A stretch of DNA of 64,000 bases from Candidatus Poseidoniales archaeon (lineage in GTDB: Archaea; Thermoplasmatota; Poseidoniia; Poseidoniales; Poseidoniaceae), in NCBI GenBank assembly GCA_038106355.1, contig JAYODQ010000005.1, positions 9,301 to 73,300 of the forward strand, given 5' to 3'. This document shows positions 31,564-62,253 of the stretch, piece by piece (position 1 is the first letter of the stretch; the number at the start of each line of letters is the position of its first letter). The translations under genes and the position numbers were made by a program. The notes under the pieces are model-generated. The model did not search any database and was not told the origin of the DNA. It was given only the letters and a program-made list of their open reading frames with translations.

Positions 31564-31637
31564 GGCATAGCCCCTCTTAGCAATGCACTCAACTCATAGC
31601 CTTTGAAGAATACGGTATCATGTCACTTTTCAAACAA

Positions 31638-37382: not shown

Positions 37383-37581
37383 GGTATCACCCGCGACATG
37401 GTACCACCTGCCGCTAACCAAAACTCCATCTGTTTACCTTATGAGGGTGATGGAACATTGTTCCGACACATTTCAAATTGATTTCATTCTCAATGAGGCA
37501 TTACGAAAGAAAAAATGAAGGTTTTTTAGATTCCGCAGCGGTGTATTCAAAGTCCTTACGCGATTGGAAAGATTTGTTCCT

Positions 37582-39492: not shown

Positions 39493-41738
39493 ACAGCATC
39501 GAGAATTTCTCGAGAGATGAAGATGCTGTTTCAGCCGCAGTAGCCACAGTCCTCCTCTTTGGTGGAGTGCTTTCCATCATTGGATTAATGATGGTTTCAA
39601 TGATTCCAGTTATCGAAGAACTTGAAGGGTCGGTTGAGCGACATGACATGTCTGCACAAATGGCGTTACTTGCCCACAAGACCGCCCTTTTGAGCGAAAC
39701 TGGAATGCCCGGCGATTCAACCTCTGCGGAACTCATACCAGTCGATGGAAATCTCGTTTGGGATCGATTGCGTGGGGGCATGTGGTATTCGGCAACATGG
39801 GGTGAAGGCATGAGTTTACGAGCAAGAAACGTCGTTGACTTTGATGATGAATTTGAAATTCGACACCCTGAAACTGAAACTGCAGTCGTCTGCACGACTG
39901 ATTTACGCCTTGGCATCAACAGGCCATTTTATTATGATATCCCGCCATATGCAGACCAAATCCTTCTCACTGCGAAACCAGGTCTTGCATTACCACTGGG
40001 TCCAATCGAGGTGTCGCTCTTTGGAGACAATGGATACGAATACTCTACCGAACTACTTGTCGACGATGCCTTCTCGGTGCAATACCTTAGTTCAGTGGCT
40101 AATCTTACTGTTGAGTCCACACATGAACTCAATGTTCTTGCATTGGCGGGAAGCGATGGAGCAACGTACATTCCTCCAAATCAACCCGATGCAGCATCAA
40201 AGATGGGTCGGTCTTGGTCTATCCCATTACCAGTTGGTAAGTCCACTGTGTACGTGACAAGCACTGAAGCAAACCAAGTAACCAAGATGATTGGTAATGA
40301 AACCTCGATATTTTATGGTCTTCCAGACAATATTGCTCGAACAGGAACGGCTGTTCAAATTGATTTTAATCAATCTCGGTCTGAAGTAGTGCATCTCTTT
40401 TCGAGTTCGGATTCTCAGGTTGTTTTCCGATACGGCTCACCTACAAGTCAAGGGTTAACCTACCTTCCATCAACATCAGGCTCTTACTTTGGCCAACAAT
40501 TCATTCCCCCACAAACAAACAGCACGCTTCGGCTTGCAAACCCCGGAGACACTTCGATAACCGTTTCATGGAGAGGGGGTGGAGTGACTGTTGCTGCTCA
40601 AGATTTTGAAGAAGTCTCGTGGCCGCCTTCAACAACCTACTCGAATCCACTCATCCTTGAATCAGATACTCCCTTTTCACTACTTTGGAGTTCATACGAT
40701 GCATCAAATTCAGTAGATACAAGGAGTGGAATGCTTCAACTCATTGCAGAAGACACTGGCTTTTGGACTGGAAGTCATTTCAATTACACTTCGAGTATAG
40801 ATTTGAACCAAAATCTTGAGGTGTCATTACGAGGATACAGATCTCAATTTCAATGGCAGCAAGGTGCAGGAAATGGCTCTAGCATCTTCATTCAAGATGG
40901 AACCTCAATGAAAGAATTTGAACTTGGCAGCGAGTCCCTGGACATCCAAGTCAACAATACCCATCCAATCTCAGTTCTGCGGCAATCAGGTACTTCAGGT
41001 GCACTTTTCATTCCTCATTCGGGCATAGAACGTTGCCAATCAGTCGGAACATTAGCCAGTGGATGGATGCCTCTCAAATTGCCTTGGGAAGCCATGGGTG
41101 GCCGAAGTGATAGTGATGTAGAACATGCATGGATTGATGGTCGACATCCATCAAGTGTGCAAATCGATGTGTTTGGAACTTTGGAAACAGACTTTAACGC
41201 AAATATAGGTACGATTTGGGCCTTTCATTTGTCAAGACTTTCCTATCAATTCAAGACCTCAGTTCAAGGCATGGAGGTCGCATATTCAGGTGGTGCTGTT
41301 ATGACAAATCATCCAGAATTTAATCCATACATTGTGATCCCTCCATCAGATCGAGGCGGTCCCGGTCCAAGATTCGCCGCAACCATTCCGGCACTTCATC
41401 CAACCTCGGATAGCGTCATTGGTGGAGGGAAATTATCCATCGACGTTGAACTGAATTTGCGAACCTCACTTGCATCAACGAATGCTTACGAAATTCGAAG
41501 GGGTTGGAATGAGCCTTATGGAAAAGCGATCGCTGAACATGCTGGAGAAGGCCTTGGTGGGAGCGAAGATTGGACGGTCTATCCCGGTAGACTGGACTTG
41601 CTCACCGATTACGTCGGCTGGGTTCCTGACCCTAGTTTTGGCACGAGTGAAACCGTGTGGCACACCAATGGTGAAGTCATCAAATTTAGTTTGCAATTGG
41701 CTGCACTTGAAGTCACCCTAAGGGAGGCAAATCGATGA
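39489..41738 (+). CDS. Large (749 aa) pilin-like protein with class III signal-like N-terminus
   Basis: The N-terminus SRDEDAVSAAVATVLLFGGVLSIIGLMMVSMIP is pilin-like. ATGA start/stop overlap with the upstream gene, and GAGGTGA lies 6-12 nt upstream. Confidence 0.55.
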   Translation: MNSIENFSRDEDAVSAAVATVLLFGGVLSIIGLMMVSMIPVIEELEGSVERHDMSAQMALLAHKTALLSETGMPGDSTSAELIPVDGNLVWDRLRGGMWYSATWGEGMSLRARNVVDFDDEFEIRHPETETAVVCTTDLRLGINRPFYYDIPPYADQILLTAKPGLALPLGPIEVSLFGDNGYEYSTELLVDDAFSVQYLSSVANLTVESTHELNVLALAGSDGATYIPPNQPDAASKMGRSWSIPLPVGKSTVYVTSTEANQVTKMIGNETSIFYGLPDNIARTGTAVQIDFNQSRSEVVHLFSSSDSQVVFRYGSPTSQGLTYLPSTSGSYFGQQFIPPQTNSTLRLANPGDTSITVSWRGGGVTVAAQDFEEVSWPPSTTYSNPLILESDTPFSLLWSSYDASNSVDTRSGMLQLIAEDTGFWTGSHFNYTSSIDLNQNLEVSLRGYRSQFQWQQGAGNGSSIFIQDGTSMKEFELGSESLDIQVNNTHPISVLRQSGTSGALFIPHSGIERCQSVGTLASGWMPLKLPWEAMGGRSDSDVEHAWIDGRHPSSVQIDVFGTLETDFNANIGTIWAFHLSRLSYQFKTSVQGMEVAYSGGAVMTNHPEFNPYIVIPPSDRGGPGPRFAATIPALHPTSDSVIGGGKLSIDVELNLRTSLASTNAYEIRRGWNEPYGKAIAEHAGEGLGGSEDWTVYPGRLDLLTDYVGWVPDPSFGTSETVWHTNGEVIKFSLQLAALEVTLREANR

Positions 41739-42211
41739 TGTCAACCAACACGCTACGTAGAGATACATCTGCAGCAGCCACTGAACTCGGATATATCTTC
41801 ACCTTTTTGCTCGGTGTTTTGCTCATGACCATGTTTAGTATTTGGGCATGGGGAATTGAAACCTCAACAAGAGAACGCTGGAACGATGAGGCCATTGTTG
41901 CAAATATGGATGACCTCGTCGAAGCGGTCGAGCGAGCAAACCAAGCCAGCAGAATCGACAATGCAACCTATGCTGAATGGGTGACATGGCGTCCTACCGA
42001 AGCTGATGAATCACTCATGAGTTTAGAATTGCATCTCGATTCCTTAGAGTTAATTGATGAGTCTTCCCGAGAGGGGTATTTCGCCCCTCATTCCGGTACT
42101 GGGAAAGCAATTCATGATGGAACGCTATCACTTGCCGGGATTTCGACAATTTGGATTGTCCTTGAGGATGGACAAATATACCTTTCAGCGGATAGGCCTC
42201 AGTTTGATTAA
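41735..42211 (+). CDS. Small (158 aa) pilin-like protein
   Basis: The N-terminus LRRDTSAAATELGYIFTFLLGVLLMTMFSIW is pilin-like. ATGA overlap with the upstream gene, and AGGGAGG lies 8 nt upstream. Confidence 0.5.
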   Translation: MMSTNTLRRDTSAAATELGYIFTFLLGVLLMTMFSIWAWGIETSTRERWNDEAIVANMDDLVEAVERANQASRIDNATYAEWVTWRPTEADESLMSLELHLDSLELIDESSREGYFAPHSGTGKAIHDGTLSLAGISTIWIVLEDGQIYLSADRPQFD

Positions 42212-44727
42212 CGGCCCATGACAGCACGGTGAACAAGGGCTTGGACCTCTTTCATTTTGGAACTTGCACCAAGTTCTCTGTACACTGAGAGTGCCCGTTG
42301 TAGATATTCCATACGTCGTTGTCTGTCGGGGGTCACCCCACCCAATCGCGTAAGTAACTCACCGATTTGCATCCTTAGATCGTTTGCTTCAGCAACAACA
42401 AGAGCCTCCCTGTAGCGCTCCATTGCCTCTTCTTTTCTACCTGCATCCTGCAAAACTTCACCAAGCAAGATTGTGATATCAACAAGCGTGACGACATCAC
42501 CTGTATCATTCATCGTCTCTAGTGATGATGTGTAATGGTGCAAAGCTAACTTTGAATCTCCTATTTTGGCGTAATATCGACCAAGAACAGATTGTGCCCT
42601 TGCATGTAATTTCTCATCATCAAGTTCTTGTGTTTTTTCAAAGCAATTCAACGCGTGATCTCTCGCTCTCTCGATTTCATCCAAATCAATGAGGGCACGA
42701 GTAAGGGTGAGTCGATGAGACAACAAGGTTTCATCATCTGAATCTGCAACAATCTTCTCAACTTCTGCGTAAGCTTCGAGTGCAGTTGCTTTGTCATTCT
42801 TTCTTCGATATAAATATCCAAGATTGTTATATGTCCTTGCTGCAAGTTTGTTGTTTTTGAGTTTGATGTAATGTTGTAAAGCTTCAGTATGCCGCTCCAT
42901 TGCAAGGTCAATGTTTCCTTGTTTCCTTGCTACATCTGCTAATGAGGAGAGAATATTAGCTTTGACTTCAACACTCTTTGAATCGCACATTGAAATCGCA
43001 TAATCAAAGGCTGCCTCTGCTTCGTTGAGTCGACCTAATAAGGAGAACAGGTCCCCTTGAAGTTGAAGAATCTGAATTCGAGAACCTATGTCGATGCTGT
43101 CGAATTCAATCTTGTTAATATGTGCATGCAATTCCATATATCCTTGTGATATGAGTCCTTTTCCATGGTCAATAATGTGCTGAGATGCCTCTTCATGCTG
43201 GTCTGAATGAATAGCGTGATAGATGGTTTCAATGACATTGTGCAATTCATCGGATTGTGTTCTGTACCACTCGAGGCATTTTAGATGATATTCCTTCTTG
43301 AGGGTCATTGGCATACTTTGAAGCAAAAACTCTCGAATCAAATCATGAACATCGTAGAGTTCAATGTCGACTTGTCGAGCTAATCCTGAGTCAACGAGTG
43401 AATCTAGTTCATCTGTGTTTAGACCTTGTTGAGCCAATTGGTCAAGCGTTGCTGGATTTCGGTAAATTGCAATGGCGGAAAGCACTCGTTTTTGTTCTGC
43501 ACTTAACTTTGAAAAAATTTCTACTGTGACGTAATTTTCGAGCGTCTCGTGAAATGTTCCGGCCGAAGCACCACGATTAATCAATTCAAGGACAAGTGGG
43601 TGACCTCTCGATAAGCCATGAATGTACAACCATTGGTCGTCCGCCATTTTCTCATAACTGCTCAAGAGTTTGCGGCCAGAATCGGAGTCCAATCCCTCAA
43701 GGGGCAGAAATAAACTTGCAATTCGACCCTCGGCGTCTTTTGCGGGAACCACGGGCTTGAATGAACGCGAAAACAACACTAAGCCAATCTTTTCCTCAGA
43801 CTCAAGAAGTGCGAGTGTGAAGGCTTGCAATGTTTGGTGCAGCAAAATATCCGAAACTTTGTGTAAATCATCGATGACAATGAGAGACGGTGCACCTTCT
43901 ATGCCATCAATGATCATTCGAGCAGCATCTGCAGGTGTAGGATGAGGATTGGTCATTAAAAAATCGGAAAATGAAGAGTCACCGATTGAAGATAACCAAT
44001 CCGCCACAGACTCAAAAAACGGACGTGAACCCTCCCATTCTTGACAACGATGATATAACAGATTTCTCCTGTGCATAAATCGTTCAATAAGTTTGGCTGC
44101 AATCGAAGTTTTTCCAATTCCAGCAATACCTGGAACCAAGAGGGTCGTTGCTCTCGCTTCAAGCATACTTTCCATGTTATCCAATTCTCGACTTCTTCCA
44201 AAGAAATGACGAACACGAGGTAAGTCTGTGAGTGATGTCACCAACTGCTTTTCGACATGCTTCGAAAGGTCTCGCTCAATAAGGTCTGGCGATAATGTTC
44301 TTGTATCCAATATTCCATTGTCATCGAGGTATCGAATGACATCGACAGGCCTCATTTCAAAAGGCAAAGAAGACTTGATGGTTCCAAGGGTCGTTGTAAC
44401 TGACTTACCGTCGTTTAAAATGCAACGAAGCTGATATGTTTGTAACCGCACCCATGTTTCACCCGCTAATTTGATACCGATATCGGTGAGGAAGTAGGCC
44501 TTTCTTTTCCTTGAAACGCCTTTCACGTGAGCTTGTCGCTCTATCAACAATCCGTCATCTTTCAAGCCTGCAATTGCTCTCGGGACATTTGACCGAGCAA
44601 TGGCTACAGCGTTTGCAATACCCATTTGGGATAAAGCAAATGGCACTTCAATACTCGATTTAAAATCTGCATAATCAAACAAGTGTAGCAAAATACGCTC
44701 TTGGACACTAGGCTTGACAATGCTCAT
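42208..44727 (-). CDS. wHTH - STAND/Arch_ATPase-type P-loop NTPase - TPR signal-transduction regulator
   Basis: 839 aa. N-terminal winged-helix region (IANAVAIARSNVPRAIAGLKDDGLLIERQ...KRKAYFLTDIG). FFGRSRELD, Walker A LLVPGIAGIGKTS, Walker B LIVIDDLHKV. The C-terminal ~350 aa are TPR repeats (NNLGYLYRRKNDKATALEAYAE etc.). SD-like GGTGAG lies 22 nt after the adhesin stop. Confidence 0.75.
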   Translation of the reverse strand: MSIVKPSVQERILLHLFDYADFKSSIEVPFALSQMGIANAVAIARSNVPRAIAGLKDDGLLIERQAHVKGVSRKRKAYFLTDIGIKLAGETWVRLQTYQLRCILNDGKSVTTTLGTIKSSLPFEMRPVDVIRYLDDNGILDTRTLSPDLIERDLSKHVEKQLVTSLTDLPRVRHFFGRSRELDNMESMLEARATTLLVPGIAGIGKTSIAAKLIERFMHRRNLLYHRCQEWEGSRPFFESVADWLSSIGDSSFSDFLMTNPHPTPADAARMIIDGIEGAPSLIVIDDLHKVSDILLHQTLQAFTLALLESEEKIGLVLFSRSFKPVVPAKDAEGRIASLFLPLEGLDSDSGRKLLSSYEKMADDQWLYIHGLSRGHPLVLELINRGASAGTFHETLENYVTVEIFSKLSAEQKRVLSAIAIYRNPATLDQLAQQGLNTDELDSLVDSGLARQVDIELYDVHDLIREFLLQSMPMTLKKEYHLKCLEWYRTQSDELHNVIETIYHAIHSDQHEEASQHIIDHGKGLISQGYMELHAHINKIEFDSIDIGSRIQILQLQGDLFSLLGRLNEAEAAFDYAISMCDSKSVEVKANILSSLADVARKQGNIDLAMERHTEALQHYIKLKNNKLAARTYNNLGYLYRRKNDKATALEAYAEVEKIVADSDDETLLSHRLTLTRALIDLDEIERARDHALNCFEKTQELDDEKLHARAQSVLGRYYAKIGDSKLALHHYTSSLETMNDTGDVVTLVDITILLGEVLQDAGRKEEAMERYREALVVAEANDLRMQIGELLTRLGGVTPDRQRRMEYLQRALSVYRELGASSKMKEVQALVHRAVMGR

Positions 44728-49299: not shown

Positions 49300-50517
49300 T
49301 CAACACGAACTTATTTTACCCACTTCTTCAAGCCATTTCGCTGCATTGAGGACTCCATAGCCACTTTTTGAATCGTGTTGGGGTGCAACTTCATCGTTCG
49401 CGGTTGACCTCATCAACGCCATTTTTACAGCATCAATACACTGGCCATTTGATGTGCTTGTATGTTTGAATTGTGGATGCTCTTGGAGGATGAGAGCAAG
49501 TACACCGGTAACAAACACCGTTGAATCGGAGGTGCCACTGCTTGAATACCACGCATTCTGTTCCCCGGTGCTTACAATTTGAACGCCTGGTGCAATGATT
49601 TCTGGTTTCAAGTGAGGATGCTCACGGGAGGACCCATCGCTCAAGGTTTGATTTCCAATGGATGAATTGACCCAAACATTTCCTAATCTGTCATGAGCTC
49701 CTACGGTGATGACTCGCGGTACATTTCCTGGAGATGACACATCGCCGTCATCATCCACTCCACCATCATTCCCTGCAGCAGCAACAACATAGACTCCCTG
49801 ATCGGTAACTTGACGTGTAGCAGAAACAGAGCGACTTTCAACTTCCTGTTCATTTTGATGCATGCCACCAAGAGATAATGAAATAATATCTGCATCAAAG
49901 ACTTCATTGCACCAACGTATTGCATCTGCAACGATGGATTCTTCACCAGTATTCATGCCGTTTGCATCTTCGTTCAAAGCAGCAACCATTGCGAAATTTA
50001 CTGATGGTGCTGCTCCGAGTTGATGGTTTTGTCCAAGTAAAATCCCGGCCATGAGCGTTCCATGTGCTATCGCACCATACTCGACTGGGGAACTGCTGCC
50101 ACCTACAAAGTCTTTGAAAACGATGGTTAATCCTTCGAATGCGTCATGTGTAAAATCAATACCTGTATCAACCATACAAACGTTGACTCCACTACCATCG
50201 AGACCCATTTCTTGCAATTCACGAATCCCTGTATCGTCAAACGCCCACTCAGATTTGGGTGGAGGTAGTTCAATAATGAGCCACTCAAACCTCCACACAA
50301 TCACCAAGAGTGAGGCGAAAAGGGCCAAGGCAAAGGCACGAGAAAAAATGGCAAACGGCCGATATGTTTGGCCGATGGGCCTTACAATGGATGGAAGCCA
50401 TCCTGTTACTCCCGAGCGCCATTCATCTTCGTAACCTGCAATTGACGGATCGACTGCTGAAACTACCCGAGGTTCATTTGGCTCTGGTAAATACTCAACA
50501 TTTCGAAGTTCATCCAT
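49300..50517 (-). CDS. Membrane-anchored subtilisin-like serine protease (S8)
   Basis: D-H-S triad in subtilase order: VCMVDTGID, AHGTLMAGIL, AAAGNDGG (oxyanion Asn), SGTSDSTVFVTGVLAL. N-terminal signal-anchor FALALFASLLVIVW. ATG at 50517 (MDELRN) lies 20 nt after the aglB stop; the track start 50631 would overlap aglB. Confidence 0.85.
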   Translation of the reverse strand: MDELRNVEYLPEPNEPRVVSAVDPSIAGYEDEWRSGVTGWLPSIVRPIGQTYRPFAIFSRAFALALFASLLVIVWRFEWLIIELPPPKSEWAFDDTGIRELQEMGLDGSGVNVCMVDTGIDFTHDAFEGLTIVFKDFVGGSSSPVEYGAIAHGTLMAGILLGQNHQLGAAPSVNFAMVAALNEDANGMNTGEESIVADAIRWCNEVFDADIISLSLGGMHQNEQEVESRSVSATRQVTDQGVYVVAAAGNDGGVDDDGDVSSPGNVPRVITVGAHDRLGNVWVNSSIGNQTLSDGSSREHPHLKPEIIAPGVQIVSTGEQNAWYSSSGTSDSTVFVTGVLALILQEHPQFKHTSTSNGQCIDAVKMALMRSTANDEVAPQHDSKSGYGVLNAAKWLEEVGKISSC

Positions 50518-50537: not shown

Positions 50538-53500
50538 TCAGAATCGAGAACCCGATTTGCCGCTTCGGATAGCCTTGAATCCAGCAAAGATGACAAGACA
50601 CATCAAGACAAATATCGTTAATGTCACCCAAATCGAATTGCCTTCACCAGTACTGCTAGCATAGTAATCAACAGAGAAGTCGAAATCTTCAACTTGTTTG
50701 TCAACATAATCAGCGTCTTCACCAATGACATCGACTCGAACATCGTATCTATGATTTCCAGCATCTGTTGCATTCATGGTGAAATCTGCATTGACAATAC
50801 TCTCTGCTGGAATCGAAATCGTTTTCTGCAGTGTTTCTCCATCTGAGGTGGTCAAGTATACAATGACGCTGCTTGCATCAAGTTTCCCATAGTTTTCAAC
50901 AGGAATACTGAGCACGGTTTCGACTTCTGCATCCGCAGTCTTTGAAATACTATTTTGGTTGACTCTCAGACTAATTCTTGCAGCAGATACCGTAACGTCG
51001 ATGGTCTCTGATTCAAGTTCCTCACCTTCGCTTGATACAATGACTGACAACTCCTTCGTTCCTTCGGTGAAGTTTTGGCCAGCAAAAATTGTGAAGGACA
51101 TCTCTCGAGAATCTCCCTTTGAAATGGTCACTGTTGTGGTCATTGGAGTCACGGACCAACCTTCAGGAATGTTATCCACAACTTCAAGGCGGAATGTGTC
51201 ATCACCATTTCCATGATTTTCGATGGTCAGTGACATTGATCTTGAAATCGAAGGCGAGATACCAACTTCTTCAGTCACATCATGAATGTGGAAGTCATAT
51301 ATTTGTGGAACAAAGACATCGATTGCAACTTCGCTTGTTTCGGAAAGTTGCGTTCTCATGTTAAGAATGACTCTGTGTCCTTGGTCAAGATGCCATGTTG
51401 TGTTTTGGGCTGGCAGTGTAATTCTTACTTGAACAGTGCTTGTTTGAGTCACACTTGAATCGGTTCCATTCTCCCCAATACCAAGTTGAATTTGCATTTC
51501 ATCAACAAATGAAGTTCCATTGTAAAATTCAACAATCCAATCTGTGGAATCAGGTGCAGCGTTGACCGAGCCGGTAAGAGTGAACACGTCGTTGATTTCA
51601 GTTCCATTGTAGGTCAACTCAATATCGAATGTAATCTGTTCGTATTCCGTTCCTGAGGTTATCGCATCCATGCGTGGAGTTGATGTACCGTCGAAAGTAG
51701 CACCTTCGATGCTCGATTCGACAATTTCCATGCTCGTGTCGGAGTTAATTCGTCGATTAAATTCCAAGGTTAACGGCTGAGAACCACTTGTTGGTACTGT
51801 TCCAGCTGCTCCTCCTGTGTACTTCATTTCAAGTTCAAAGTCGTGTTGAATTGTTGTAAATTCAGAATCGAAACTGATGGCACCGGCAGGGGCGAGGATG
51901 AAGAATGTACCATTTGCTGGAGCAAATTGAATCATTTCCATGCCATCACCGAAGTTAACTTCTACTTCGACATCTTCAGTGATCAATTCAGTTCCTTCAT
52001 CATCACTTCCGATGTGGTGTGAGTTTCCTTGAATATCAGTCCATGACGTACTGAGGATAATGTACCCTCCGTTCCTCATCTCCAACTCGATGGAGCCTCC
52101 GGTTGATACCGTTGCATCAAGCAATCCAACGGCGACATCTCCACCATTTTCATCAAGATTTTGTGATTGAACATACACAATCCATTCGCCAGGCTGTACA
52201 TCTGCACTCCACTCTAACGTTGAACCATTCATGACGCCAGTCACTTCAATTGGGTCACGGTCAAACTTCGAATGTGGATAAAGAATGATAATTGCATTTT
52301 CGTGGTCACTTCCAACGGAATCAATGACGGTTCCGCTCACGGATACTGTAATGGCTTCAACTTCGATATCTACTGATTCTGAGTTGTTGTTCACGACAAA
52401 ACCTTGTGAGTCATTTGTGGTTTCATAATAAACGGTGCCATACCCTTCTTTTTCCACCGTGACATTGTACTGGTCTTGGATTGGAACGAAAAGACGCCAT
52501 GTACCACTTGCATCGGTTTCAACTGTTTGATTTACAGTCATTTCATCCGAACTTAAAACAGTCACATTCATCCCTTGAATACCTTGTTTCACCTCAGAAC
52601 TGATTTGCCAGTAGACCATACCCCCAATTTGTACCTCAAGATCTGCTTCTTGTGGACCCAAGTCAAGGTTGAATTCTTCATCATGGTCATCGGTATTGAA
52701 CGGAGATTCTGATGTGTCCAGCATCCAGTGCTTTGTTGAGGTTGAGTAATTGAGGAGCAAGCTCCATTCACCCGGCATCAATAATTCAGTGACAAAGCCA
52801 GTTTGATTTGTCTTTTCAAATGTAATATTTCCTAAGCCTTCATGACTGATGGCTTTCACTCTCATATCGGAGAGATTGGCTCCAGTGATGGATTCAACGA
52901 GTTGGAGACTTACGTTGACACCTTGCATCGTTTGTAATTCAAGACCAATTCGTGCATCGGCATTTGAATCAATGCTGAGAGGTTGTCTCAACACTTCGGT
53001 TATCTCTCCAGATGAATACGGGGCAACGATGAACAACCAGTCGCCTGTTGGAACATAAGCTGCAAATGAGCCATTTTCATCGGATGCGATGTTGAACCAA
53101 TCATCTTTAACTTCATTGTACAGAAGGAAATCATTTTGAATTCCGTCGCCTGATGCATTGGACAATGTTCCGTTGACTCGGTATGACTCCTTGAATACCA
53201 ATTCAACGACATCTTCTGGACCTGCTAAACCGATGTCGATCATGTCGAAAAATGAGAGAGCGACGAGGTCGTAATCTGATGCATTCTCATCTGAAGCAGC
53301 CGTACGATTGAGGACGATTTGATAACTTCCCGGTGTTAGTGTAACAATGAGTTCACCATTCGATTGATAATCTTCTTCGGTAATGTTCACTTGAGTACCA
53401 ATGCCCATCGGTTGCAAAATGAAACTTGGAGATACCTTTGTTCCATCTGTGAAGTTCACATCAGCGTTGCTGGCCATGTATACATTCAGGTTCACCTCAA

Positions 53501-56500
53501 TTGCTTCTGGATGAACGTAAAATTCCAACATGGAATTTTGACGTGTCGTTTGTGTGTCAACAATCACATCTTGTGCTGTCGTTGCATTGAGCAAATCATT
53601 CTCGAATTCAAAGTCGTATGTTCCATCAGGAATTTGAATGAAGAATCGCCCTTGTTCGGAAACACTTGTGTTCCACTTGAGTCCATCCCCATCGGTTACA
53701 TAGAGTTGTTCGGATTCCCACCCTGGAACTGATGAATCCCAGAAGGTGGTGTTATCGTAAAGATAGACAAATCCTTCAATGGTTGAGGTAGGTTCGAGAT
53801 ACAAAATTCCCAAGTCGATATTCTCGTCTCCAGTTACAGACAAAAGTTCACCATAAGCCATCGCATTGGTAATGGAGGAGGTAGTAAAATGATAATCTAG
53901 TCCACTTGGAACGCGAATCGAGAAATTACCAGTGTCCTGTGTTGTCACTGCGGTGAATTCAAGATCACCTGCGACCAATGTGATTCCGAGGCTTCTCGCT
54001 GGCTCTGTTTCTCTTGTCAGCAGTTCAGGGTTTGTCTCAGTTTCTTGTAACCATTGATGATACAAGTTAAGATCACCATTGTATGAACGAATTGAACCGT
54101 TGAGGACAACTGAAATCGCATAACTGAATTCAACATCGATTTCATAACCATGCTCAATCGAAATTTTCTCATACAAAACCATGGATTCATCAACATCGTC
54201 GCTAATGGTATATTCTCCTGCGAGGAGTTCGACATACACGATTCCATTCTCATCCGATGTCGCTTGGACAGGTTTCATGAATCCTAAACCGTCATTAAAG
54301 GTCAACGTTCTGTTTGACACATCGATAAGTGGTTCATTGGTTTCTTCATCAAGCGGTGAAACGAGTTGAATGGTGAGGTCACCGGTCGGCGGTACATTAA
54401 ACGCAAGATTCAGTTCTTGAGGTTCATCGCCGACAAGAAGGGTTTGGTTCATATCGTACCATCCATCACCATCGACGTCAACTCGGTAGTAATATTCACC
54501 ATAGGTAACAGGTCCGTACCCAAACGAACCATTTTCATCGGTCATAATTTCGACCTTCGATTCTTCGCCAAGCACGACATCAATGAGTTCAAGGGTCATG
54601 TTCGATAGTGGATTGTTATCAATGTCAACCAATGTGTCCGTGAAATACGAACCTGGAATCGTCATGCCAACATCGTAGGAAGGAGAGATACCAATAACCA
54701 CTGGATTCGGGAGGAGGACTTCCTTTCCATTTTCCAATTGTGCAATCATGTTGTATGTTCCGGGAAGTAATCCGGTTTTGTAAAACGAACCGGGTTCAAC
54801 CATTGGACCAGAAAAGGTACCATTTCCGATGAACAAACCTGTACCGTTAAAGATACCAGTTCCATAGAAATTACCAATGCCTTCGAAAGTGACGCCATCA
54901 TCGTATTCTTGAATGAACGTTGTGACGCCATCTGAGGTCAGCATACCCTTTCCAACAAATTCGCCATCGAACATGTATTCATTGGTGTCTTCACCCATTT
55001 CACAAATGGTTTGGTTTTCTGGCATTGCAAATTCTGTGGTGTTTTCAACGATTTCACATTGTGCCATATCCGTTGTATTTTCAAGCCATGAAGCCCTAAA
55101 GGTACCCTTACCATTCCATGTACCGTTTCCAAAGTACATCACTTTGTCTGTAATTTCACGGGTGTAGGTTCCTTTGAATTCTTTGACGAATGCAACACCC
55201 TCACTTTCGAATGTTCCATTGTATGTGAATTCGACTTCTCCAGTACCCTGCAAGATTCGTGTCTCTTCTGAAGTGAAAGTACCACTGGTTGTTGTGACCG
55301 TGTAGTTGTCGGTCATTGACCAAATATTTCTCAAAATGAATGTCGTTTCTTCAACAGGCTCACCTTCAAAACTCTCATGGCCAGTCCACTGAATCGTTCC
55401 AGAAACACCGCTTGAACCAATTTGGATGTCCAAAGAATCGCTAATTGCAACGCGTCGATTTGCTTGGTCACCAGTGATGTTGACCTCTGACTCTCCGAGC
55501 CATGTCATGTTGGAAACATGACCCAAAATCGCAGTTAACTCATTCACAGTTCTGTTTTCATTTGAGATTTGAAGCAAGTCTTGAATGTTGCTTACGTACG
55601 AACCGTCTCGAATGTTGTCTTGATCGAAGACTGGATTATATGTTCCTGCGAATGCCGAAACACGGATTCTTCCTGCCGGCACATCAAAGGAATATCTTCC
55701 GTTTTCATCTGCATCGACATATCCGATAGGAATCCAATATGTGTCACCATCATCATCTTCGAGGCCTTCACCAGAAAACGCATCTCTTTCGATGAGAACA
55801 CGAACATTTGGAATGCCAATTCCATCATCTTCTGTCATCACTTGTCCATTGAGCTTACCGCCTGGATAATATTTCAAAATCTTCACAAGCGTATTCGCAT
55901 TTGCCAAACTTGATTCTGGATCATCACTGTACCAATTTGCAAGAACAAAGTGGTTCATCATTGCACCAGGGAGCGGTACTGCTTGTTGCAGAATACTTCC
56001 AGGTGAACCAGATTGACCGAAGTGTTGCGACGGTTGTGGGTTTGAAGAGTCGGTGTCCAATCCGAGTGATGATGCACCATATCCTACGTATGTTCTTGCA
56101 ACCATCGTGTCAAAGAACGCAGGCTGGTGGGTGATTCGCACATCTTCGAGCGAGATGAAGTCGATATCTGCACCTGCTTGGTTGTTCAAGAAATCTTTCT
56201 TGACCGCTTCTTCATATTCAGCAGCGGTCATTTCATCTTTGAACTCACCGCGAATCGTTTCATAAGTTTCAGACATAAATGTTTGAATATCCTGTCCGGA
56301 CAAGATGGTTGGCGCACCAAAGATTCCCATTGGCTGACCTGAATTGTATTGACTATCTGCAGTATATCGTCCTGCACGGGGGTACAATCTGTTGTCAACA
56401 GCGAAATATCGAATCTCGTGGTCACGGTCAATGGTTTCTCCTGGTGCTGCATCGTAATCTTGAACAGTGTAATATCCTTCCATGTTGATGATGTCGTTGT

Positions 56501-59500
56501 ACAAATCATGGATGGTTGCTGTGGGGTGAGCGTCGAAGACCGCATCAAGCAGTTGCACAGTGAGTGCCAATCGCGCGTTCTGACGGTGGATATTGGTCGA
56601 GACCGACAAATATTCGTCAATCAAATCTGAGGTGTACCAGTAATCTCCAATGATGTAATGTGTGGTTTCAAACACGGTGTCTTGACCACTTCGAATATTG
56701 TTGGTAAATGTGATATTTGCTTGACTTTCATCAAGCCAATCGCCGTTATGACACAAAGTTCCAGAAGTTTCTTCACAGAAAAGACGTTCTCCATCTTTCC
56801 AAATTCGGTAAATCTGTTGACTTGAATCATCAAAAACACCGTTCGAATGCGTGTATCCTTCAGCCATCACTACATCTCTGTTCGTTTTCATGACAGTGAA
56901 TGCACGCTTTGAGACAAAGTCGACCATCTCTTCATCAAATTGAGTTTCCATGGTCAAAAATTCTTCAAGTTGTTCATCGGTAAGATATTTGTCCATCTTG
57001 TTGGTAAAGCCTTGGCTAAGGTCAATCTTATCGAAGTTGGATTCCATGTACGACCTATCGCCCTCAGCGAGTTGCCAAATGAACATAGCTGTGAGGTCAT
57101 CTTGATTTCGTGCAAGCAACATGTTACCAGTTGCAGGAATACCCGACTGGAAGTTATCCGAAACGGATGGATGCTCTCCAGTGTTGAGTGCTTGAAAACC
57201 ATAGTCCCACCAAGAGACGAAAGCAGGTCGCTCTGAATATGCAACTTCTGTATCTTGGCTCGCTAACCATTGGTACGCGAGGTTCCATCCGTTGTCGTTG
57301 AATGAAGAGCCAAACGAACCGAGATACCAATTTCCAGTATACAGGGAACTGTCGAGCAATGAAAATCCAAGGACCTCGAAGCGGAATATGTCTGGCATGA
57401 TGTTGTAAATGTCTTCATCCAATTCTCTCTCGGATGTTGATGAGCCAGGAATGGCTGAATCTAGACCGTACGTTGCTTGTTGGCTAAAGATGAGGATCAT
57501 GACAATCATAATTGCAGAAAACGATGGTGTTTTCCATACGGCTTTGCGAGCACCAGTAATACGATCCGCAGGCGTTCGAATACCAAACTTTTGCCACTTT
57601 AATTTCAAGCCTTTCCAATCAGCTTTGCTCCAAAGGGAAACGACACCGGCTGCACCCATAACCGCCATAACGGGTGATGCGTTGAACATGAAACGAGCGG
57701 CGTTCCATGCCATGAAGGAAGCAGCAAACACCCAAACACCGAACACAAGTTGTGTTTGTTTTCTCTTTCGGATTCCTTCGGACAACAACAAAACGCCCAT
57801 CACCAAAGCAAGGACAAAGGTGATTGGTCCAAACGAGGCAAAGAGTTGTGCTCTGTTCGGTGCATTTGCTTCAGCAACAGTTCCGAAAATCTTGGTTTTG
57901 GTGAAATATCCACTACCGGTGAGAAGAACATCCCAAGCATTCGAAACGTCGAGTTGCTGTAGAATATACAAGATGCCGAAGAATACTGCACTTGAGACTG
58001 TTAATGTTCCAAGGACGAGCAACCAAGGCTTGTCTCTAAATCCGGTGGTAATAAATGTCAATGCAAGCGTGAACCCTAACACAAAGAGGAAAGGTTGCAA
58101 TCCTGTTGGATCGAGCATCAGATTGAATTGTGGGTGAGCGTAGAATGGAAGAGCCATGAGTAAATTCACAACGAGCATCACAAGGAACAAACTGCTGAGA
58201 ATGGTTGAGTCTCTTCGCCTAAACAAGTTGAGTGCGACTTGAAGTGCATACGCCAAGAAGAGAATCGACGGACCAACAACGAAACCTTTCCATCCAAGGG
58301 ATGCTACACCGAAAGAGGCACCCGCGAGAGCAGCATAAGCCACCGATGCTCTGCGGTTGTGAACAACATCTTTGAATGCCTTCACGAAACTACCAAATTT
58401 TGGAGAGGTTGATTTTGAAAGTCGTGCGGACCCTGCATATCGAACCGCTTTCATCCAGTACATGAAACCAAGACTGATGAATAACATCACGAATGCGTCG
58501 TGGTCAGCAAGTGCCCATGTTGAATGGGTGACGTGAGCAGGCATGAAGGCAATGAGCCATGCAGCAATGACACCTGCACCCTTGCCGAATTGGTCTCGAG
58601 CAATGACAGCGATTGGAAGAATGGTCAATGCACCATAGAGTGCTGGCAGACCAAGCATGCTCCACCATACTGCATTTTCCGCTTGACTTCCGAGGAAAGG
58701 CTCGATAAGTATTGCACCGAGAGCCATTGACCAGGAGAATAACGGTGGACGTGGGTTGATACCGCCAATCGGGTATGATCGGTCTGCATCGAAGACAAGA
58801 TGGGCATTTTGAGCCAAGATGTAGTCCACGACTCGCTTCATGTACCAAGGGTCTGAACCCCCAGTCATGTCCCATCCACCGGTTCCAAATGCGTTCATAG
58901 ATGGTACGACGTACCATTGTACACGAATCGCCAATCCGATGATGAATGCAAGCCAAATCAATGTTGAACTCCAATGTTGGCTCCAGAACTTTCGTGCACC
59001 AGAACCTTCATGAGGTTCAAGATTAGACCATCCTCCGTATTTTTCATGACTTCCAATGTAATAGATGGCGACACCGATGAAGAAGGTGAAAGCAAGCCAA
59101 ATCAATGCTGCCCAATTTCCTTCGAGTTGAGTCGAGGTCCAAATCCCCTTTTCATACCATGAAGAAACTAGGTAAAGGGCCCACATTGAACCTGCGACCA
59201 TTGAACGTGTAAACCATCGTTCGGCAAACATACCCGCGACGATAAGTGCGACAATGCCTGTCAACGTTGCAGTCCAAAACCCTACATAGCCTGTGTAATT
59301 TTCGACGGTGGTTACGCCAAGTTTGTTGCCGAGGCTCACTGAATCGTAGTGCCACAAGGAACCAGCGTATGCAAGTACCCAAACATACAATGCAACGATG
59401 AGTGGGAGTGCATTCCTTTGAAATCCGCTAACAGGGGTGATGTAACCAAACCATCCTTCAGTTCCCGCTTCATTGAGGAGTCCACGAGTGGTCACGCCAA

Positions 59501-60050
59501 TAGCAAGACCGAGTATTGTGAACATCATGAGATTTGTAAAAAAGAGGTAAGCAATTGTTTCTCGAGAAAGATTGAGCGTAGCCACCAATTGTCCGTTGTC
59601 GAGTTCAAATGTGGATGGCAAATTCGACGATTGTGCGACGTGGAGAGCCATCCAGTAACCAACCGAAAAGAAAGTGAGCATCGCTTGCCATTCATGTTTC
59701 GACTTCAAATTCAGACGATGACCAAAGACGAAGAGAATGAAGAAGAGCAAACCTGCTACTGCATCAATGTACATGTAGACGACATCTGCAAGGATGAAAC
59801 CAATGACCAACACAGCGAGGGAGATTTGTGTTTCATTGGAACGGCCAGAGCGGAGAATCATTCTTGGCACGGTGGCAAGAATGGCTGCAACGCCCATCAC
59901 GAAGAAGGGCGTCAAGTTCTCTGTGGTTAAGTCGAAGTCAATGCCTGCGACTTTCATTGTTGCAATCGCCAGCACAATTGCCAAGGCTGGAATAATCCAA
60001 CCAAGGAATGAACTTGGGCGATGTTGCACGCTTTTGTTTTCGTTTTCCAT
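50538..60050 (-). CDS. aglB: Giant (3,170 aa) AglB/STT3 oligosaccharyltransferase fused to an N-terminal extra polytopic module and a C-terminal ~1,750-aa beta-sandwich array with terminal TM anchor
   Basis: GGSD(400)PWYMKR (EL1 acidic motif), ALAD(516)HD(518), GT(724)VAE (TIXE-type) and WWDYG (aa 947-951; nt 57198-57212, verified on the DNA). At least 10 CarboxypepD_reg-like modules (for example TDENGSFGYGPVTYGEYYY and TDASGTWRLFVPIQDQYNVTVEKEGYG), plus CARDB-like ENHGNGDDTFRLEV. C-terminal helix IWVTLTIFVLMCLVIFAGFKAI. SD-like GAGGGA upstream. Confidence 0.9.
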   Translation of the reverse strand: MENENKSVQHRPSSFLGWIIPALAIVLAIATMKVAGIDFDLTTENLTPFFVMGVAAILATVPRMILRSGRSNETQISLAVLVIGFILADVVYMYIDAVAGLLFFILFVFGHRLNLKSKHEWQAMLTFFSVGYWMALHVAQSSNLPSTFELDNGQLVATLNLSRETIAYLFFTNLMMFTILGLAIGVTTRGLLNEAGTEGWFGYITPVSGFQRNALPLIVALYVWVLAYAGSLWHYDSVSLGNKLGVTTVENYTGYVGFWTATLTGIVALIVAGMFAERWFTRSMVAGSMWALYLVSSWYEKGIWTSTQLEGNWAALIWLAFTFFIGVAIYYIGSHEKYGGWSNLEPHEGSGARKFWSQHWSSTLIWLAFIIGLAIRVQWYVVPSMNAFGTGGWDMTGGSDPWYMKRVVDYILAQNAHLVFDADRSYPIGGINPRPPLFSWSMALGAILIEPFLGSQAENAVWWSMLGLPALYGALTILPIAVIARDQFGKGAGVIAAWLIAFMPAHVTHSTWALADHDAFVMLFISLGFMYWMKAVRYAGSARLSKSTSPKFGSFVKAFKDVVHNRRASVAYAALAGASFGVASLGWKGFVVGPSILFLAYALQVALNLFRRRDSTILSSLFLVMLVVNLLMALPFYAHPQFNLMLDPTGLQPFLFVLGFTLALTFITTGFRDKPWLLVLGTLTVSSAVFFGILYILQQLDVSNAWDVLLTGSGYFTKTKIFGTVAEANAPNRAQLFASFGPITFVLALVMGVLLLSEGIRKRKQTQLVFGVWVFAASFMAWNAARFMFNASPVMAVMGAAGVVSLWSKADWKGLKLKWQKFGIRTPADRITGARKAVWKTPSFSAIMIVMILIFSQQATYGLDSAIPGSSTSERELDEDIYNIMPDIFRFEVLGFSLLDSSLYTGNWYLGSFGSSFNDNGWNLAYQWLASQDTEVAYSERPAFVSWWDYGFQALNTGEHPSVSDNFQSGIPATGNMLLARNQDDLTAMFIWQLAEGDRSYMESNFDKIDLSQGFTNKMDKYLTDEQLEEFLTMETQFDEEMVDFVSKRAFTVMKTNRDVVMAEGYTHSNGVFDDSSQQIYRIWKDGERLFCEETSGTLCHNGDWLDESQANITFTNNIRSGQDTVFETTHYIIGDYWYTSDLIDEYLSVSTNIHRQNARLALTVQLLDAVFDAHPTATIHDLYNDIINMEGYYTVQDYDAAPGETIDRDHEIRYFAVDNRLYPRAGRYTADSQYNSGQPMGIFGAPTILSGQDIQTFMSETYETIRGEFKDEMTAAEYEEAVKKDFLNNQAGADIDFISLEDVRITHQPAFFDTMVARTYVGYGASSLGLDTDSSNPQPSQHFGQSGSPGSILQQAVPLPGAMMNHFVLANWYSDDPESSLANANTLVKILKYYPGGKLNGQVMTEDDGIGIPNVRVLIERDAFSGEGLEDDDGDTYWIPIGYVDADENGRYSFDVPAGRIRVSAFAGTYNPVFDQDNIRDGSYVSNIQDLLQISNENRTVNELTAILGHVSNMTWLGESEVNITGDQANRRVAISDSLDIQIGSSGVSGTIQWTGHESFEGEPVEETTFILRNIWSMTDNYTVTTTSGTFTSEETRILQGTGEVEFTYNGTFESEGVAFVKEFKGTYTREITDKVMYFGNGTWNGKGTFRASWLENTTDMAQCEIVENTTEFAMPENQTICEMGEDTNEYMFDGEFVGKGMLTSDGVTTFIQEYDDGVTFEGIGNFYGTGIFNGTGLFIGNGTFSGPMVEPGSFYKTGLLPGTYNMIAQLENGKEVLLPNPVVIGISPSYDVGMTIPGSYFTDTLVDIDNNPLSNMTLELIDVVLGEESKVEIMTDENGSFGYGPVTYGEYYYRVDVDGDGWYDMNQTLLVGDEPQELNLAFNVPPTGDLTIQLVSPLDEETNEPLIDVSNRTLTFNDGLGFMKPVQATSDENGIVYVELLAGEYTISDDVDESMVLYEKISIEHGYEIDVEFSYAISVVLNGSIRSYNGDLNLYHQWLQETETNPELLTRETEPARSLGITLVAGDLEFTAVTTQDTGNFSIRVPSGLDYHFTTSSITNAMAYGELLSVTGDENIDLGILYLEPTSTIEGFVYLYDNTTFWDSSVPGWESEQLYVTDGDGLKWNTSVSEQGRFFIQIPDGTYDFEFENDLLNATTAQDVIVDTQTTRQNSMLEFYVHPEAIEVNLNVYMASNADVNFTDGTKVSPSFILQPMGIGTQVNITEEDYQSNGELIVTLTPGSYQIVLNRTAASDENASDYDLVALSFFDMIDIGLAGPEDVVELVFKESYRVNGTLSNASGDGIQNDFLLYNEVKDDWFNIASDENGSFAAYVPTGDWLFIVAPYSSGEITEVLRQPLSIDSNADARIGLELQTMQGVNVSLQLVESITGANLSDMRVKAISHEGLGNITFEKTNQTGFVTELLMPGEWSLLLNYSTSTKHWMLDTSESPFNTDDHDEEFNLDLGPQEADLEVQIGGMVYWQISSEVKQGIQGMNVTVLSSDEMTVNQTVETDASGTWRLFVPIQDQYNVTVEKEGYGTVYYETTNDSQGFVVNNNSESVDIEVEAITVSVSGTVIDSVGSDHENAIIILYPHSKFDRDPIEVTGVMNGSTLEWSADVQPGEWIVYVQSQNLDENGGDVAVGLLDATVSTGGSIELEMRNGGYIILSTSWTDIQGNSHHIGSDDEGTELITEDVEVEVNFGDGMEMIQFAPANGTFFILAPAGAISFDSEFTTIQHDFELEMKYTGGAAGTVPTSGSQPLTLEFNRRINSDTSMEIVESSIEGATFDGTSTPRMDAITSGTEYEQITFDIELTYNGTEINDVFTLTGSVNAAPDSTDWIVEFYNGTSFVDEMQIQLGIGENGTDSSVTQTSTVQVRITLPAQNTTWHLDQGHRVILNMRTQLSETSEVAIDVFVPQIYDFHIHDVTEEVGISPSISRSMSLTIENHGNGDDTFRLEVVDNIPEGWSVTPMTTTVTISKGDSREMSFTIFAGQNFTEGTKELSVIVSSEGEELESETIDVTVSAARISLRVNQNSISKTADAEVETVLSIPVENYGKLDASSVIVYLTTSDGETLQKTISIPAESIVNADFTMNATDAGNHRYDVRVDVIGEDADYVDKQVEDFDFSVDYYASSTGEGNSIWVTLTIFVLMCLVIFAGFKAIRSGKSGSRF
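50640..55862 (-). repeat. Tandem array of prealbumin/carboxypeptidase-regulatory-like and CARDB-like beta-sandwich modules within aglB (approximate bounds)
   Basis: A recurring pattern 'short beta segment - (T/S)DxxG - F/Y - x5-8 - PG/AG-x-Y/W' appears at least 10 times between aa ~1397 and ~3137. Confidence 0.65.
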
Positions 60051-61455: not shown

Positions 61456-61554
61456 CTTGAAATGAATCCGTCTCATGAACATAACCCAAGGAATTGATGT
61501 AGGAAGGAAGGGGAAACATCAAACACTTCATTGAGCACGAAGAACACGATATCA

Positions 61555-62253
61555 ATGACTACGGTTGTGGGATTTGCATCAGATGCTGCATCCTTCGTCG
61601 AAGAATCTTCATTTTTTGCCGCTGTGGTTATGACGTTATGGCTGTACCTCTCGGGGTTTCTAGCAAACACTTTTGCAATGATGTGGGGGAAATGGTTGCC
61701 AAAAACAGGGTATGGGCCATGGCCAATCGATGGTGGCAAAGTCTGGAAGGACGGCGAACGACTGCTTGGCGACGGTAAAACTTGGAACGGGCTTATCGGT
61801 GGTTCGCTCACAAGCGGATTGATGTGCATGCTCATCTCGATTTCAATGGGAACGCCATCGTCATACAGCTTCATTGATGCAACAATCTTTGTCCATCCCC
61901 TCACTGGATATGAGGACACATGGTGGAACGTTGGATCTGTTGCTGGAAGTGCATTTCTTTTGGGTACGATGCTCGGATTCTTTTGTCTTCTCGGCGACAT
62001 GACCGGTTCCTTTTTCAAGCGACGAAGAGGCTTGAAAAGAGAGGGTAACGTATCTTCAAAAGCACCATTACTTGACACTCTCCCTTTTGCTATCATGCTG
62101 TTTATTTTTGGGCAATTGGTGCTCGGAAATGCATTACTATCGTCGACTGCCTTAATTCCTGCCATGATTGCACTCATTGTAGCAACACCCATATTGCACC
62201 GAAGTTTCAATCTGATTGGCTACGCAATTGGTTGGAAAGATGTCCCATACTAA
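61555..62253 (+). CDS. carS: CDP-archaeol synthase (CDP-2,3-bis-O-geranylgeranyl-sn-glycerol synthase, DUF46 family)
   Basis: A polytopic ~230-aa protein with PIDGGKVWKDGERLLGDGKTWNGLIGG and GDMTGSFFKRRRGL...APLLDTLPF, characteristic of CarS. The antisense 245-aa ORF (61473-62210) is rejected. Confidence 0.8.
   Translation: MTTVVGFASDAASFVEESSFFAAVVMTLWLYLSGFLANTFAMMWGKWLPKTGYGPWPIDGGKVWKDGERLLGDGKTWNGLIGGSLTSGLMCMLISISMGTPSSYSFIDATIFVHPLTGYEDTWWNVGSVAGSAFLLGTMLGFFCLLGDMTGSFFKRRRGLKREGNVSSKAPLLDTLPFAIMLFIFGQLVLGNALLSSTALIPAMIALIVATPILHRSFNLIGYAIGWKDVPY

Follow-up and report, generated by a model that had tools for sequence, protein, structure and literature searches.

The window analysed here is a stretch of 64,000 nucleotides (nts) from a Candidatus (Ca.) Poseidoniales archaeon (GenBank assembly GCA_038106355.1, contig JAYODQ010000005.1, positions 9,301 to 73,300 of the forward strand). 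Its minus strand carries a giant gene of the AglB/STT3 family, which most likely encodes, to judge from its sequence, an AglB-type oligosaccharyltransferase (OST) of a Marine Group II (MGII, Ca. Poseidoniales) archaeon, predicted to be active as an ordinary STT3. Characterised OST catalytic subunits have about 600 to 1,100 amino acids (aa) and end in a soluble domain. The product of the gene in the window would unite four parts in one polypeptide, namely a lineage-specific N-terminal bundle of about 10 transmembrane (TM) helices, an STT3 domain with an external domain bearing the WWDYG motif, a rod of about 1,750 aa, and a last TM helix followed by a basic tail. The open reading frame (ORF), its parts and its catalytic motifs are the following, AfAglB-L being the AglB-L of A. 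fulgidus:

50538..60050, minus strand: giant AglB/STT3, whole ORF, 3,170 aa plus stop, a single uninterrupted frame with an ATG start
59001..60050, minus strand: N-terminal extension, aa 1-350, about 10 TM helices predicted from hydropathy (8 strong, 2 weak)
57471..59000, minus strand: STT3/AglB membrane domain (GT-C fold), aa 351-860, from Pfam STT3, TIGR04154, phmmer with 3WAJ, and Foldseek
58851..58853, minus strand: D400 of GGSD400PWYMKR, first catalytic acidic residue, in the first external loop, pairing with D47 of AfAglB-L (GGND47PWY)
58497..58505, minus strand: D516-H-D518 of ALAD516HD518, second acidic motif (DxD/DxH type), pairing with D161-H-H163 of AfAglB-L
57870..57881, minus strand: T724-V-A-E727 of GT724VAE727, TIXE-type motif in external loop 5, from the cross-class alignment
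57198..57212, minus strand: WWDYG, aa 947-951, aligned with the WWDYG of AfAglB-L and also with 3VGP and 3VU0
55866..57470, minus strand: external AglB C-terminal domain, aa 861-1395, enlarged, acidic and sequon-poor, with matches to AglB_core-like (weak), 3VGP and 3VU0
50634..55865, minus strand: rod, aa 1396-3139, of diverged CnaB/prealbumin-like and CARDB-like β domains, from Pfam, AlphaFold (AF2), Foldseek and the sequon count
50568..50633, minus strand: C-terminal TM helix, aa 3140-3161, hydropathy 2.6, conserved in all giants, with YGG at its inner end
50541..50567, minus strand: basic cytoplasmic tail RSGKSGSRF, aa 3162-3170, from the sequence

A conserved giant gene of the Poseidoniales

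The ORF is genuine and conserved and is not an assembly artefact. Its recomputation returned the single 3,170-aa frame, with its ATG start, that had been reported in an earlier reading of the DNA alone (hereafter, the sequence-only reading). The GC content of the locus (0.43-0.475, vs 0.40-0.475 over the window) does not give it a foreign-looking composition, and neither tRNA nor Rfam features were found in the window. A search of 5.8 billion clustered proteins gave 474 matches, and nearly all of the best 120, which were inspected, are 3,125-3,230 aa long, with 47-82% identity and approximately 100% coverage. Full-length clusters number more than 100 and come from ENA, NCBI, JGI, Tara and Logan assemblies. 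Within this range the giant length is fixed and the alignment is collinear, unlike in repeat-variable adhesins.

A genome scan with one genome per GTDB species revealed at least 580 relatives, of which the best 80 loci, one per species, were analysed. All 80 encode giants, and all belong to genomes labelled Ca. Poseidoniales, Poseidoniaceae, Poseidonia or Thalassarchaeaceae, or to generically labelled archaeal metagenome-assembled genomes (MAGs), while STT3 relatives of about 1,100-1,200 aa carry the labels 'Thermoplasmatota archaeon' or 'Euryarchaeota archaeon' only. The nearest species locus is 93% identical across the core. An intact stop-to-stop frame of 3,166-3,261 codons was found in 55 of the 80 species loci; contig ends cut 22 others, and the frame is interrupted in the last three (L053, L058 and L065, with longest frames of 2,002, 1,447 and 572 codons, respectively). 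The region of nt 55.8-56.2 kb, in which the sequence-only reading had placed the passage from enzyme to array and the possible join of two genes, is conserved in all homologues. There is no dip in conservation across the proposed joint (aa ~1395), and the stretch NTLVKILKYY...ERDAFSGE right after it is among the best conserved. The idea of an assembly join or a frameshift hence fails, because the joint region is conserved and the frame is intact in 55 genomes.

An orthologue from Marine Group IIb (MGIIb) appears in a published MAG table as a gene of 9,538 nts, automatically annotated as aglB, with purD upstream and an S8 'halolysin' downstream (PMC9723583). Its transcripts occur in field metatranscriptomes, with enrichment when the genus is active (log2 fold change of 2.05), and in the portion of that table analysed a single gene of family GT66 is significant (PMC9723583). 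The size of this aglB draws no comment in the paper (PMC9723583). The sequence-only reading had considered the gene the best candidate in the window for an undescribed system. This holds for the architecture, since no description of an AglB of this size or architecture was found in full-text searches of the literature, the main MGII genomics papers or a 2024 review of archaeal N-glycosylation, and nothing in the literature searched ties AglB/STT3 size or architecture to MGII or Thermoplasmatota. It does not hold for the gene, which is already present in databases, and in one published MAG table, under generic names or automatic aglB/STT3 annotations. The giant is undescribed rather than undetected.

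Catalytic core, rod and membrane anchors

Pfam STT3 (PF02516) matches aa 398-639 (E-value, E, of 1e-11), and NCBIfam TIGR04154, the archaeosortase A system-associated STT3 subfamily, matches aa 364-984 (E 7e-52). The score of the latter, 176.8 bits, does not reach the curated cutoff of 450 bits, so that the giant is a relative of this subfamily and not a member. The hydropathy of aa 361-860 is compatible with about 13 helices. In a phmmer search of all PDB entries, aa 352-807 aligned with residues 4-447 of A. fulgidus AglB-L (3WAJ; E 6e-10), and Foldseek with the AlphaFold membrane domain placed AfAglB (7E9S) first (E 4e-12), with human STT3A/B, yeast Stt3 and PglB next. The AlphaFold model of aa 340-1420 is mediocre (predicted local distance difference test, pLDDT, of 61) and serves fold assignment, not inspection of the active site or of the DK motif.

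The four motifs lie at the residues given by the sequence-only reading, with WWDYG at nt 57198-57212 after recomputation of the coordinates, and the acidic and WWDYG residues coincide with STT3 catalytic positions, as D400, D516-D518 and WWDYG pair with D47, D161-H163 and the WWDYG of AfAglB-L. All four are invariant in 59 aligned giant homologues. In more distant classes, D400, E727 and WWDYG are also invariant and D518 is at least 90% conserved across classes. A 22-sequence alignment of all size classes shows T724 and E727 to be invariant, with the consensus TIAEAQAP; the pairwise phmmer alignment set the TIAE of AfAglB 7 residues upstream, which reflects an ambiguity in the loop. At window positions 57120-57135 (minus strand, aa ~973-976), the alignment sets a conserved A-T-G-N976 at the DxxK position of a short AfAglB (3VGP), and G975 is invariant across all classes. 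The giant may have, in its Ser/Thr pocket, a residue of neither the DK nor the MI type.

The external domain (aa 861-1395) contains 1 sequon, vs 4.5 expected. Near its end, a linker at aa ~1375-1392, ahead of NTLVKILKYY, varies in length among giants. By BLAST, aa ~1150-1550, comprising the junction and the first β-sandwich, are homologous to regions of 2,100-2,700-aa STT3 proteins and even of one of 1,154 aa.

The rod that follows has a net charge of -220. Pfam hidden Markov models (HMMs) recognise in it four CarboxypepD_reg-like stretches (approximately aa 1400-1475, 1807-1861, 2033-2062 and 2486-2544) and two CARDB-like stretches; one domain matches NOMO1-like_9th (PF22902; 31.6 bits, for a cutoff of 27), and a match to choice-of-anchor T at aa 2897-3016 falls below cutoff. 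The AlphaFold model of aa 1380-2579 is confident (pLDDT 87) and all-β, with 11-12 units approximately, as counted by eye on the DSSP string. With the 560 aa outside the model included, the whole rod is estimated to contain about 16 domains, which would give an arch with a half-length of roughly 25-30 nm. Foldseek with the modelled rod retrieved tandem CnaB/prealbumin-type immunoglobulin (Ig) arrays, with B. anthracis TIE (E 2e-12), SdrD, SpaA, BcpA and RrgB, while a PDB sequence search with the rod gave no matches. The count of at least 10 modules made in the sequence-only reading is thus upheld at the level of fold, but HMMs support only the six stretches listed above. A protein of recent tandem repeats was considered and rejected, as hhalign of three modules against the whole array was weak (best E 2e-4, most 0.02-0.1).

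The rod contains 45 N-X-S/T sequons, whereas 19.0±3.8 are expected from composition-preserving shuffles (z 6.8); no other ORF tested in the window is as strongly enriched. Of the 45 positions, 20 recur in 11 or more of 15 homologues, and the conserved sequons include N1514, N1524, N1642, N1679, N1735 and N2844. Conservation within the rod is highest at window positions ~54810-55280 (minus strand, aa ~1590-1747), where β strands of 14-26 residues occur with G-x-G-x-F repeats (FEGIGNFYGTGIFNGTGLFIGNGTFSG). This segment also contains the two invariant cysteines of the rod, 1665 and 1683, and is unlike an ordinary Ig module. Family HMM scans found no recognisable ligand-binding domain in the giant.

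The rod is placed outside the cell because, in the STT3 fold, whatever follows the last STT3 helix lies on that side. The C-terminus, IWVTLTIFVLMCLVIFAGFKAI followed by RSGKSGSRF, bears out by sequence and hydropathy the hydrophobic helix and basic tail of the sequence-only reading. This last helix would bring the chain back to the cytoplasm, the K/R-containing tail fitting the positive-inside rule, and the rod would then be pinned to the membrane at both ends. A terminal R/K/P-F is found in 10 of 10 proteins of at least 3,100 aa among the nearest representatives; an exception among the aligned giants is P0119, with K-L at its end. Together, the conserved YGG and the final F hint at a specific contact, beyond what a generic anchor would need. 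The giant has no PGF-CTERM signal: its end reads ...GNSIWVTL...AGFKAIRSGKSGSRF, with no PGF at the start of the helix and no NCBIfam match.

The sequence-only reading recognised the core, the β-sandwich array and the second anchor, all of which stand, but overlooked a conserved S8 partner gene (see below) and the N-terminal extension. The latter (aa 1-350) is kept in every protein of the class of at least 3,100 aa. It has no Pfam match at E≤1 and a single, meaningless PHROG match, and neither similarity to the STT3 membrane domain nor an internal duplication was found in it. From the positive-inside rule and the placement of sequons, its loops can, on our reading, be interpreted as an N-terminus inside and an even number of helices, which would be what STT3 helix 1 requires.

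Relatives, known systems and conserved neighbours

An exhaustive phmmer search with aa 1-1200 against 1.84 billion cluster representatives revealed 809 relatives, the best 150 of which were sorted by size. Among these 150, 98 have at least 2,000 aa: 10 of at least 3,100 aa, with the N-terminal extension, and 88 of 2,000-3,099 aa, mostly without it, a few of the latter being N-terminally truncated copies of the longer class. One hydrophobic helix and a basic tail form the C-terminus in 96 of the 98. STT3, array and C-terminal TM helix are hence common to 96 of the 150 nearest representatives, and the idea of a one-off fusion of an OST with an array, as the sequence-only reading had it, is to be abandoned. 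Those relatives that carry a source name are listed as 'Thermoplasmata archaeon' or 'Ca. Thermoplasmatota archaeon'. In the 2,000-3,099-aa class, the arrays are just as dense in sequons (median of 2.6 per 100 aa), and the distal array of the giant is collinear by BLAST with those of two proteins of the 2,000-2,800-aa class at about 20% identity. Because the junction and the first β-sandwich have homologues in shorter STT3 proteins, the architecture is old and widespread among relatives. At the sequence level, the Poseidoniales form is this shared design with an N-terminal extension and a longer rod.

The 2,000-2,800-aa STT3 proteins of Thermoplasmatota thus share with the giant the core, the junction, the first β-sandwich, a collinear sequon-rich array and the C-terminal TM helix with its basic tail. 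Their arrays are, however, shorter and more NOMO/CarboxypepD_reg-like, and they lack the N-terminal extension. Some have PGF-CTERM-like ends, with PGF(E/G/D), an archaeosortase A signal, at the start of the helix in 7 relatives, and there is no adjacent S8 gene at the two loci examined. Their automatic annotations are 'STT3 domain-containing', 'GT39 family' and 'carboxypeptidase regulatory-like domain-containing'.

AfAglB-L (3WAJ/3WAK/5GMY/7E9S) and other long archaeal AglBs have the same GT-C/STT3 domain and the same order of motifs as the giant. AfAglB-L is its best match both in sequence (E 6e-10, or 3e-28 with the cross-class profile) and in fold (E 4e-12), and likewise has an external C-terminal domain followed by β-rich peripheral domains. 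It differs in its length (875 vs 3,170 aa) and at the position of the DK motif, and it has none of the 350-aa multi-TM extension, the Ig-like array of about 1,750 aa and the second membrane anchor, all of which are present in the giant.

For the rod, the cross-class profile matches human NOMO2 (9C7V) over the array columns (E 9e-31), whereas a Poseidoniales-only profile does not match NOMO2. NOMO, an ER-luminal subunit of the BOS complex (ER, endoplasmic reticulum), is like the rod a string of prealbumin/CarboxypepD_reg-type β-domains that ends in a single TM helix. It is nevertheless eukaryotic, enzyme-free and anchored at one end only, while the rod is fused to an enzyme and would be anchored at both. 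NOMO was described as a type-I TM spacer of about 27 nm, shaped as 'beads on a string', whose length sets the width of ER sheets (PMC8327139). It offers a useful analogy for the rod, not a demonstrated relationship. The best Foldseek matches of the rod are the Gram-positive stalk and pilin arrays (BaTIE 6FWV, SdrD B, SpaA, BcpA, RrgB and Cna B; E 2e-12 to 1e-5). These are anchored to peptidoglycan by sortases, have ligand-binding tips and often vary in repeat number; the domains of the rod, in contrast, are highly diverged from one another and would have a membrane anchor at both ends of the chain.

Archaeal S-layer glycoproteins, such as that of Haloferax volcanii, are acidic, heavily N-glycosylated strings of Ig-like domains with a C-terminal TM or PGF-CTERM anchor, and are made as separate proteins with a signal peptide. 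For a place of the giant among S-layer proteins, which form the two-dimensional surface lattice and are the most abundant of the envelope, its composition, sequons and anchor speak only indirectly. No sequence similarity of the giant to these glycoproteins turned up, in searches among which no comparison was aimed at them.

The giant gene lies in a conserved order, CarS - purD - giant STT3 - S8 subtilase - β-helix/Big_7 - AAA16/TPR regulator - small ORF - DUF7289 pilin-like genes, which is kept in relatives at 48-53% protein identity. Two neighbours bear on its interpretation:

49300..50517, minus strand: S8 subtilase, conserved partner, Pfam Peptidase_S8 (E 3e-34), ATG 20 nts after the TGA of the giant
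44750 to 49132/49159, minus strand: β-helix/Big_7 protein, secreted, about 1,460-1,469 aa, conserved neighbour with its own AT-rich upstream region

The S8 gene is directly downstream of the giant in 64 of the 64 Poseidoniales species loci that reach that far, and also at loci L001-L003. Its product is predicted to begin in the cytoplasm, to cross the membrane once (TM helix at aa 57-76) and to expose its catalytic domain outside; its best NCBIfam likeness is mycosin-like and below cutoff. An AT-rich stretch of about 170 nts separates the S8 gene from the next one, that of the β-helix protein. At two loci of the 2,100-2,450-aa class, the S8/β-helix neighbourhood is absent.

The β-helix protein has a signal peptide, a match to the 'acidic double-disulfide repeat' and a Q-rich C-terminus, and lacks a membrane anchor. 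It might be secreted as a partner of the rod. The sequence-only reading suggested that the enzyme could hold the sequon-rich giant adhesins encoded next to it. This is not supported for the adjacent gene, as the β-helix protein is not enriched, with 13 sequons vs 16.3 expected, whereas the rod of the enzyme has 45 vs 19. The rod itself would be the obvious substrate.

Interpretation and remaining genes of the window

On balance, the reading favoured here is that of an active AglB built into a glycosylated, doubly anchored rod at the cell surface, which would be both its own substrate in cis and a structural element of the envelope. The enzyme would move a lipid-linked glycan to the Asn of N-X-S/T on the outer face of the membrane, and the rod would form a heavily N-glycosylated surface element (i.e., a coat, spacer or stalk) glycosylated by its own enzyme. 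The glycosylation capacity would in this way be coupled stoichiometrically to one major surface glycoprotein. The self-glycosylated structural element is proposed in view of the strong acidity of the rod, its roughly 45 sequons, largely conserved, and the scarcity of sequons in the catalytic external domain. The envelope-scaffold function suggested in the sequence-only reading is likewise conjectural.

Several points weigh on the other side. A structural role would demand a high copy number, and a 24-TM protein would be an expensive coat. The constant adjacency of the protease gene is a hint that the polypeptide may be cut. In addition, AF2 performs poorly over the catalytic external domain (pLDDT of about 30-45 around WWDYG), and no DK/MI motif, which contributes to the Ser/Thr pocket, could be recognised: a conserved A-G-N stands at the aligned position. 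A bolder formulation, which appears rather doubtful as a whole, is that the main surface glycoprotein (an S-layer-like coat or its stalk) is made as the C-terminal part of the OST, that its approximately 45 sequons are glycosylated in cis, and that it is then either doubly anchored or released by the subtilase, in the Poseidoniales and, in a shorter form, in much of the Thermoplasmatota.

The protease is central to an unlikely alternative, in which the OST and a C-terminally anchored, S-layer-like glycoprotein are made as one precursor that the membrane-anchored, presumably co-transcribed S8 enzyme cuts near the linker at aa ~1375-1392. After export and glycosylation in cis, the products would be a type-I-anchored glycoprotein and an AglB of normal size. 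The start of the S8 gene 20 nts past the stop of the giant, its downstream position in all 64 Poseidoniales loci that reach that far, the N-terminal TM anchor and outer catalytic domain predicted for the protease, and the variable length of the linker before NTLVKILKYY are all consistent with such processing. So are the Ig-like domains, acidity, sequons and C-terminal anchor of the array, which are hallmarks of archaeal surface glycoproteins, and the PGF-CTERM-like ends of relatives. However, the segment that follows the linker, first β-sandwich included, ranks among the best conserved parts and is homologous even in 1,154-aa STT3 proteins, which speaks for an integrated domain and against a joint that is cut; moreover, no cleavage motif was identified and an adjacent S8 gene is absent at the other Thermoplasmatota giants examined (two loci). 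It is distinctly improbable that the rod and terminal TM helix are instead a built-in accessory module serving the enzyme, either by catching, retaining or spacing nascent secreted substrates at the active site, as a single-chain analogue of the accessory eukaryotic OST subunits with β-sandwiches and a single TM helix (ribophorins, OST48), or as a NOMO-like spacer that fixes a luminal distance. The E of 9e-31 between the cross-class profile and NOMO2, the NOMO1-like_9th match (31.6 bits vs cutoff 27), the precedent of NOMO as a type-I TM spacer of about 27 nm (PMC8327139) and the specific contact suggested by YGG and the terminal F speak for it. Yet NOMO2 is out of reach of the Poseidoniales-only profile, the likeness lies in a domain fold that is itself widespread, a binding domain was not found, and an accessory module does not require dense conserved sequons.

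An adhesin, in which the array would be a stalk presenting a binding function (for particles, algae or cells) and STT3 a mere anchor and source of glycosylation, would agree with the Gram-positive adhesin and pilin stalks found by Foldseek, with the clustering of giant surface proteins in the window and with the proposed attachment of MGII to particles (PMC6461757). This appears very unlikely: with both ends in the membrane no distal tip would be presented, neither length nor domain order varies across the Poseidoniales, no recognisable ligand-binding domain was found, and the neighbourhood is a conserved housekeeping one (CarS, purD) and not a variable island. Finally, a mis-assembled or mis-called fusion, or a dead STT3 relic, is hardly credible. 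Although the frame is interrupted in 3 of the 80 species loci (L053, L058, L065), it is intact in 55 from independent assemblies, with further copies in Tara, JGI, ENA, NCBI and Logan; all catalytic motifs are invariant in aligned giants, and the MGIIb orthologue is transcribed (PMC9723583).

This enzyme of a globally dominant, uncultured plankton lineage is three times the usual size of an OST and carries its own sequon-dense Ig-like rod, which in the favoured reading is self-glycosylated and doubly anchored. If the rod is an element of the surface coat, N-glycosylation would be physically linked to envelope construction, and the giant would be a concrete candidate for a constituent of the MGII cell surface, which bears on how viruses attach, on association with particles and on the dissolved glycoproteins of the sea. 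In the bolder formulation, the self-glycosylating envelope module would have no described counterpart and could explain how the most abundant archaea of the surface ocean are covered. The giant would also be a natural single-chain arrangement of an OST with accessory luminal domains and extra TM helices, to be set beside the multi-subunit eukaryotic OST.

The remaining genes of the window include the CDP-archaeol synthase CarS at 61531-62253 (plus strand; NCBIfam E 2e-36, 125 bits, below the 148-bit cutoff). An ORF at 61473-62210 (minus strand), which overlaps CarS on the opposite strand and has no family match, is probably spurious. At 38425-42211 (plus strand) and 42208-44727 (minus strand), three consecutive ORFs with archaeal class-III (type IV pilin-like) N-terminal signals, DUF7289 in relatives, adjoin a MalT-like regulator with helix-turn-helix, AAA16 and TPR domains, and relatives keep this block in synteny at 48-53% identity. 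Two more giant secreted proteins, of 1,790 and 1,927 aa, are encoded at 26191-37421 (minus strand), neither with a C-terminal TM helix. The 1,927-aa protein has a weak, sub-cutoff match to the bacterial thrombospondin type-3 repeat and contains 30 sequons vs 16.7 expected (z 3.6).

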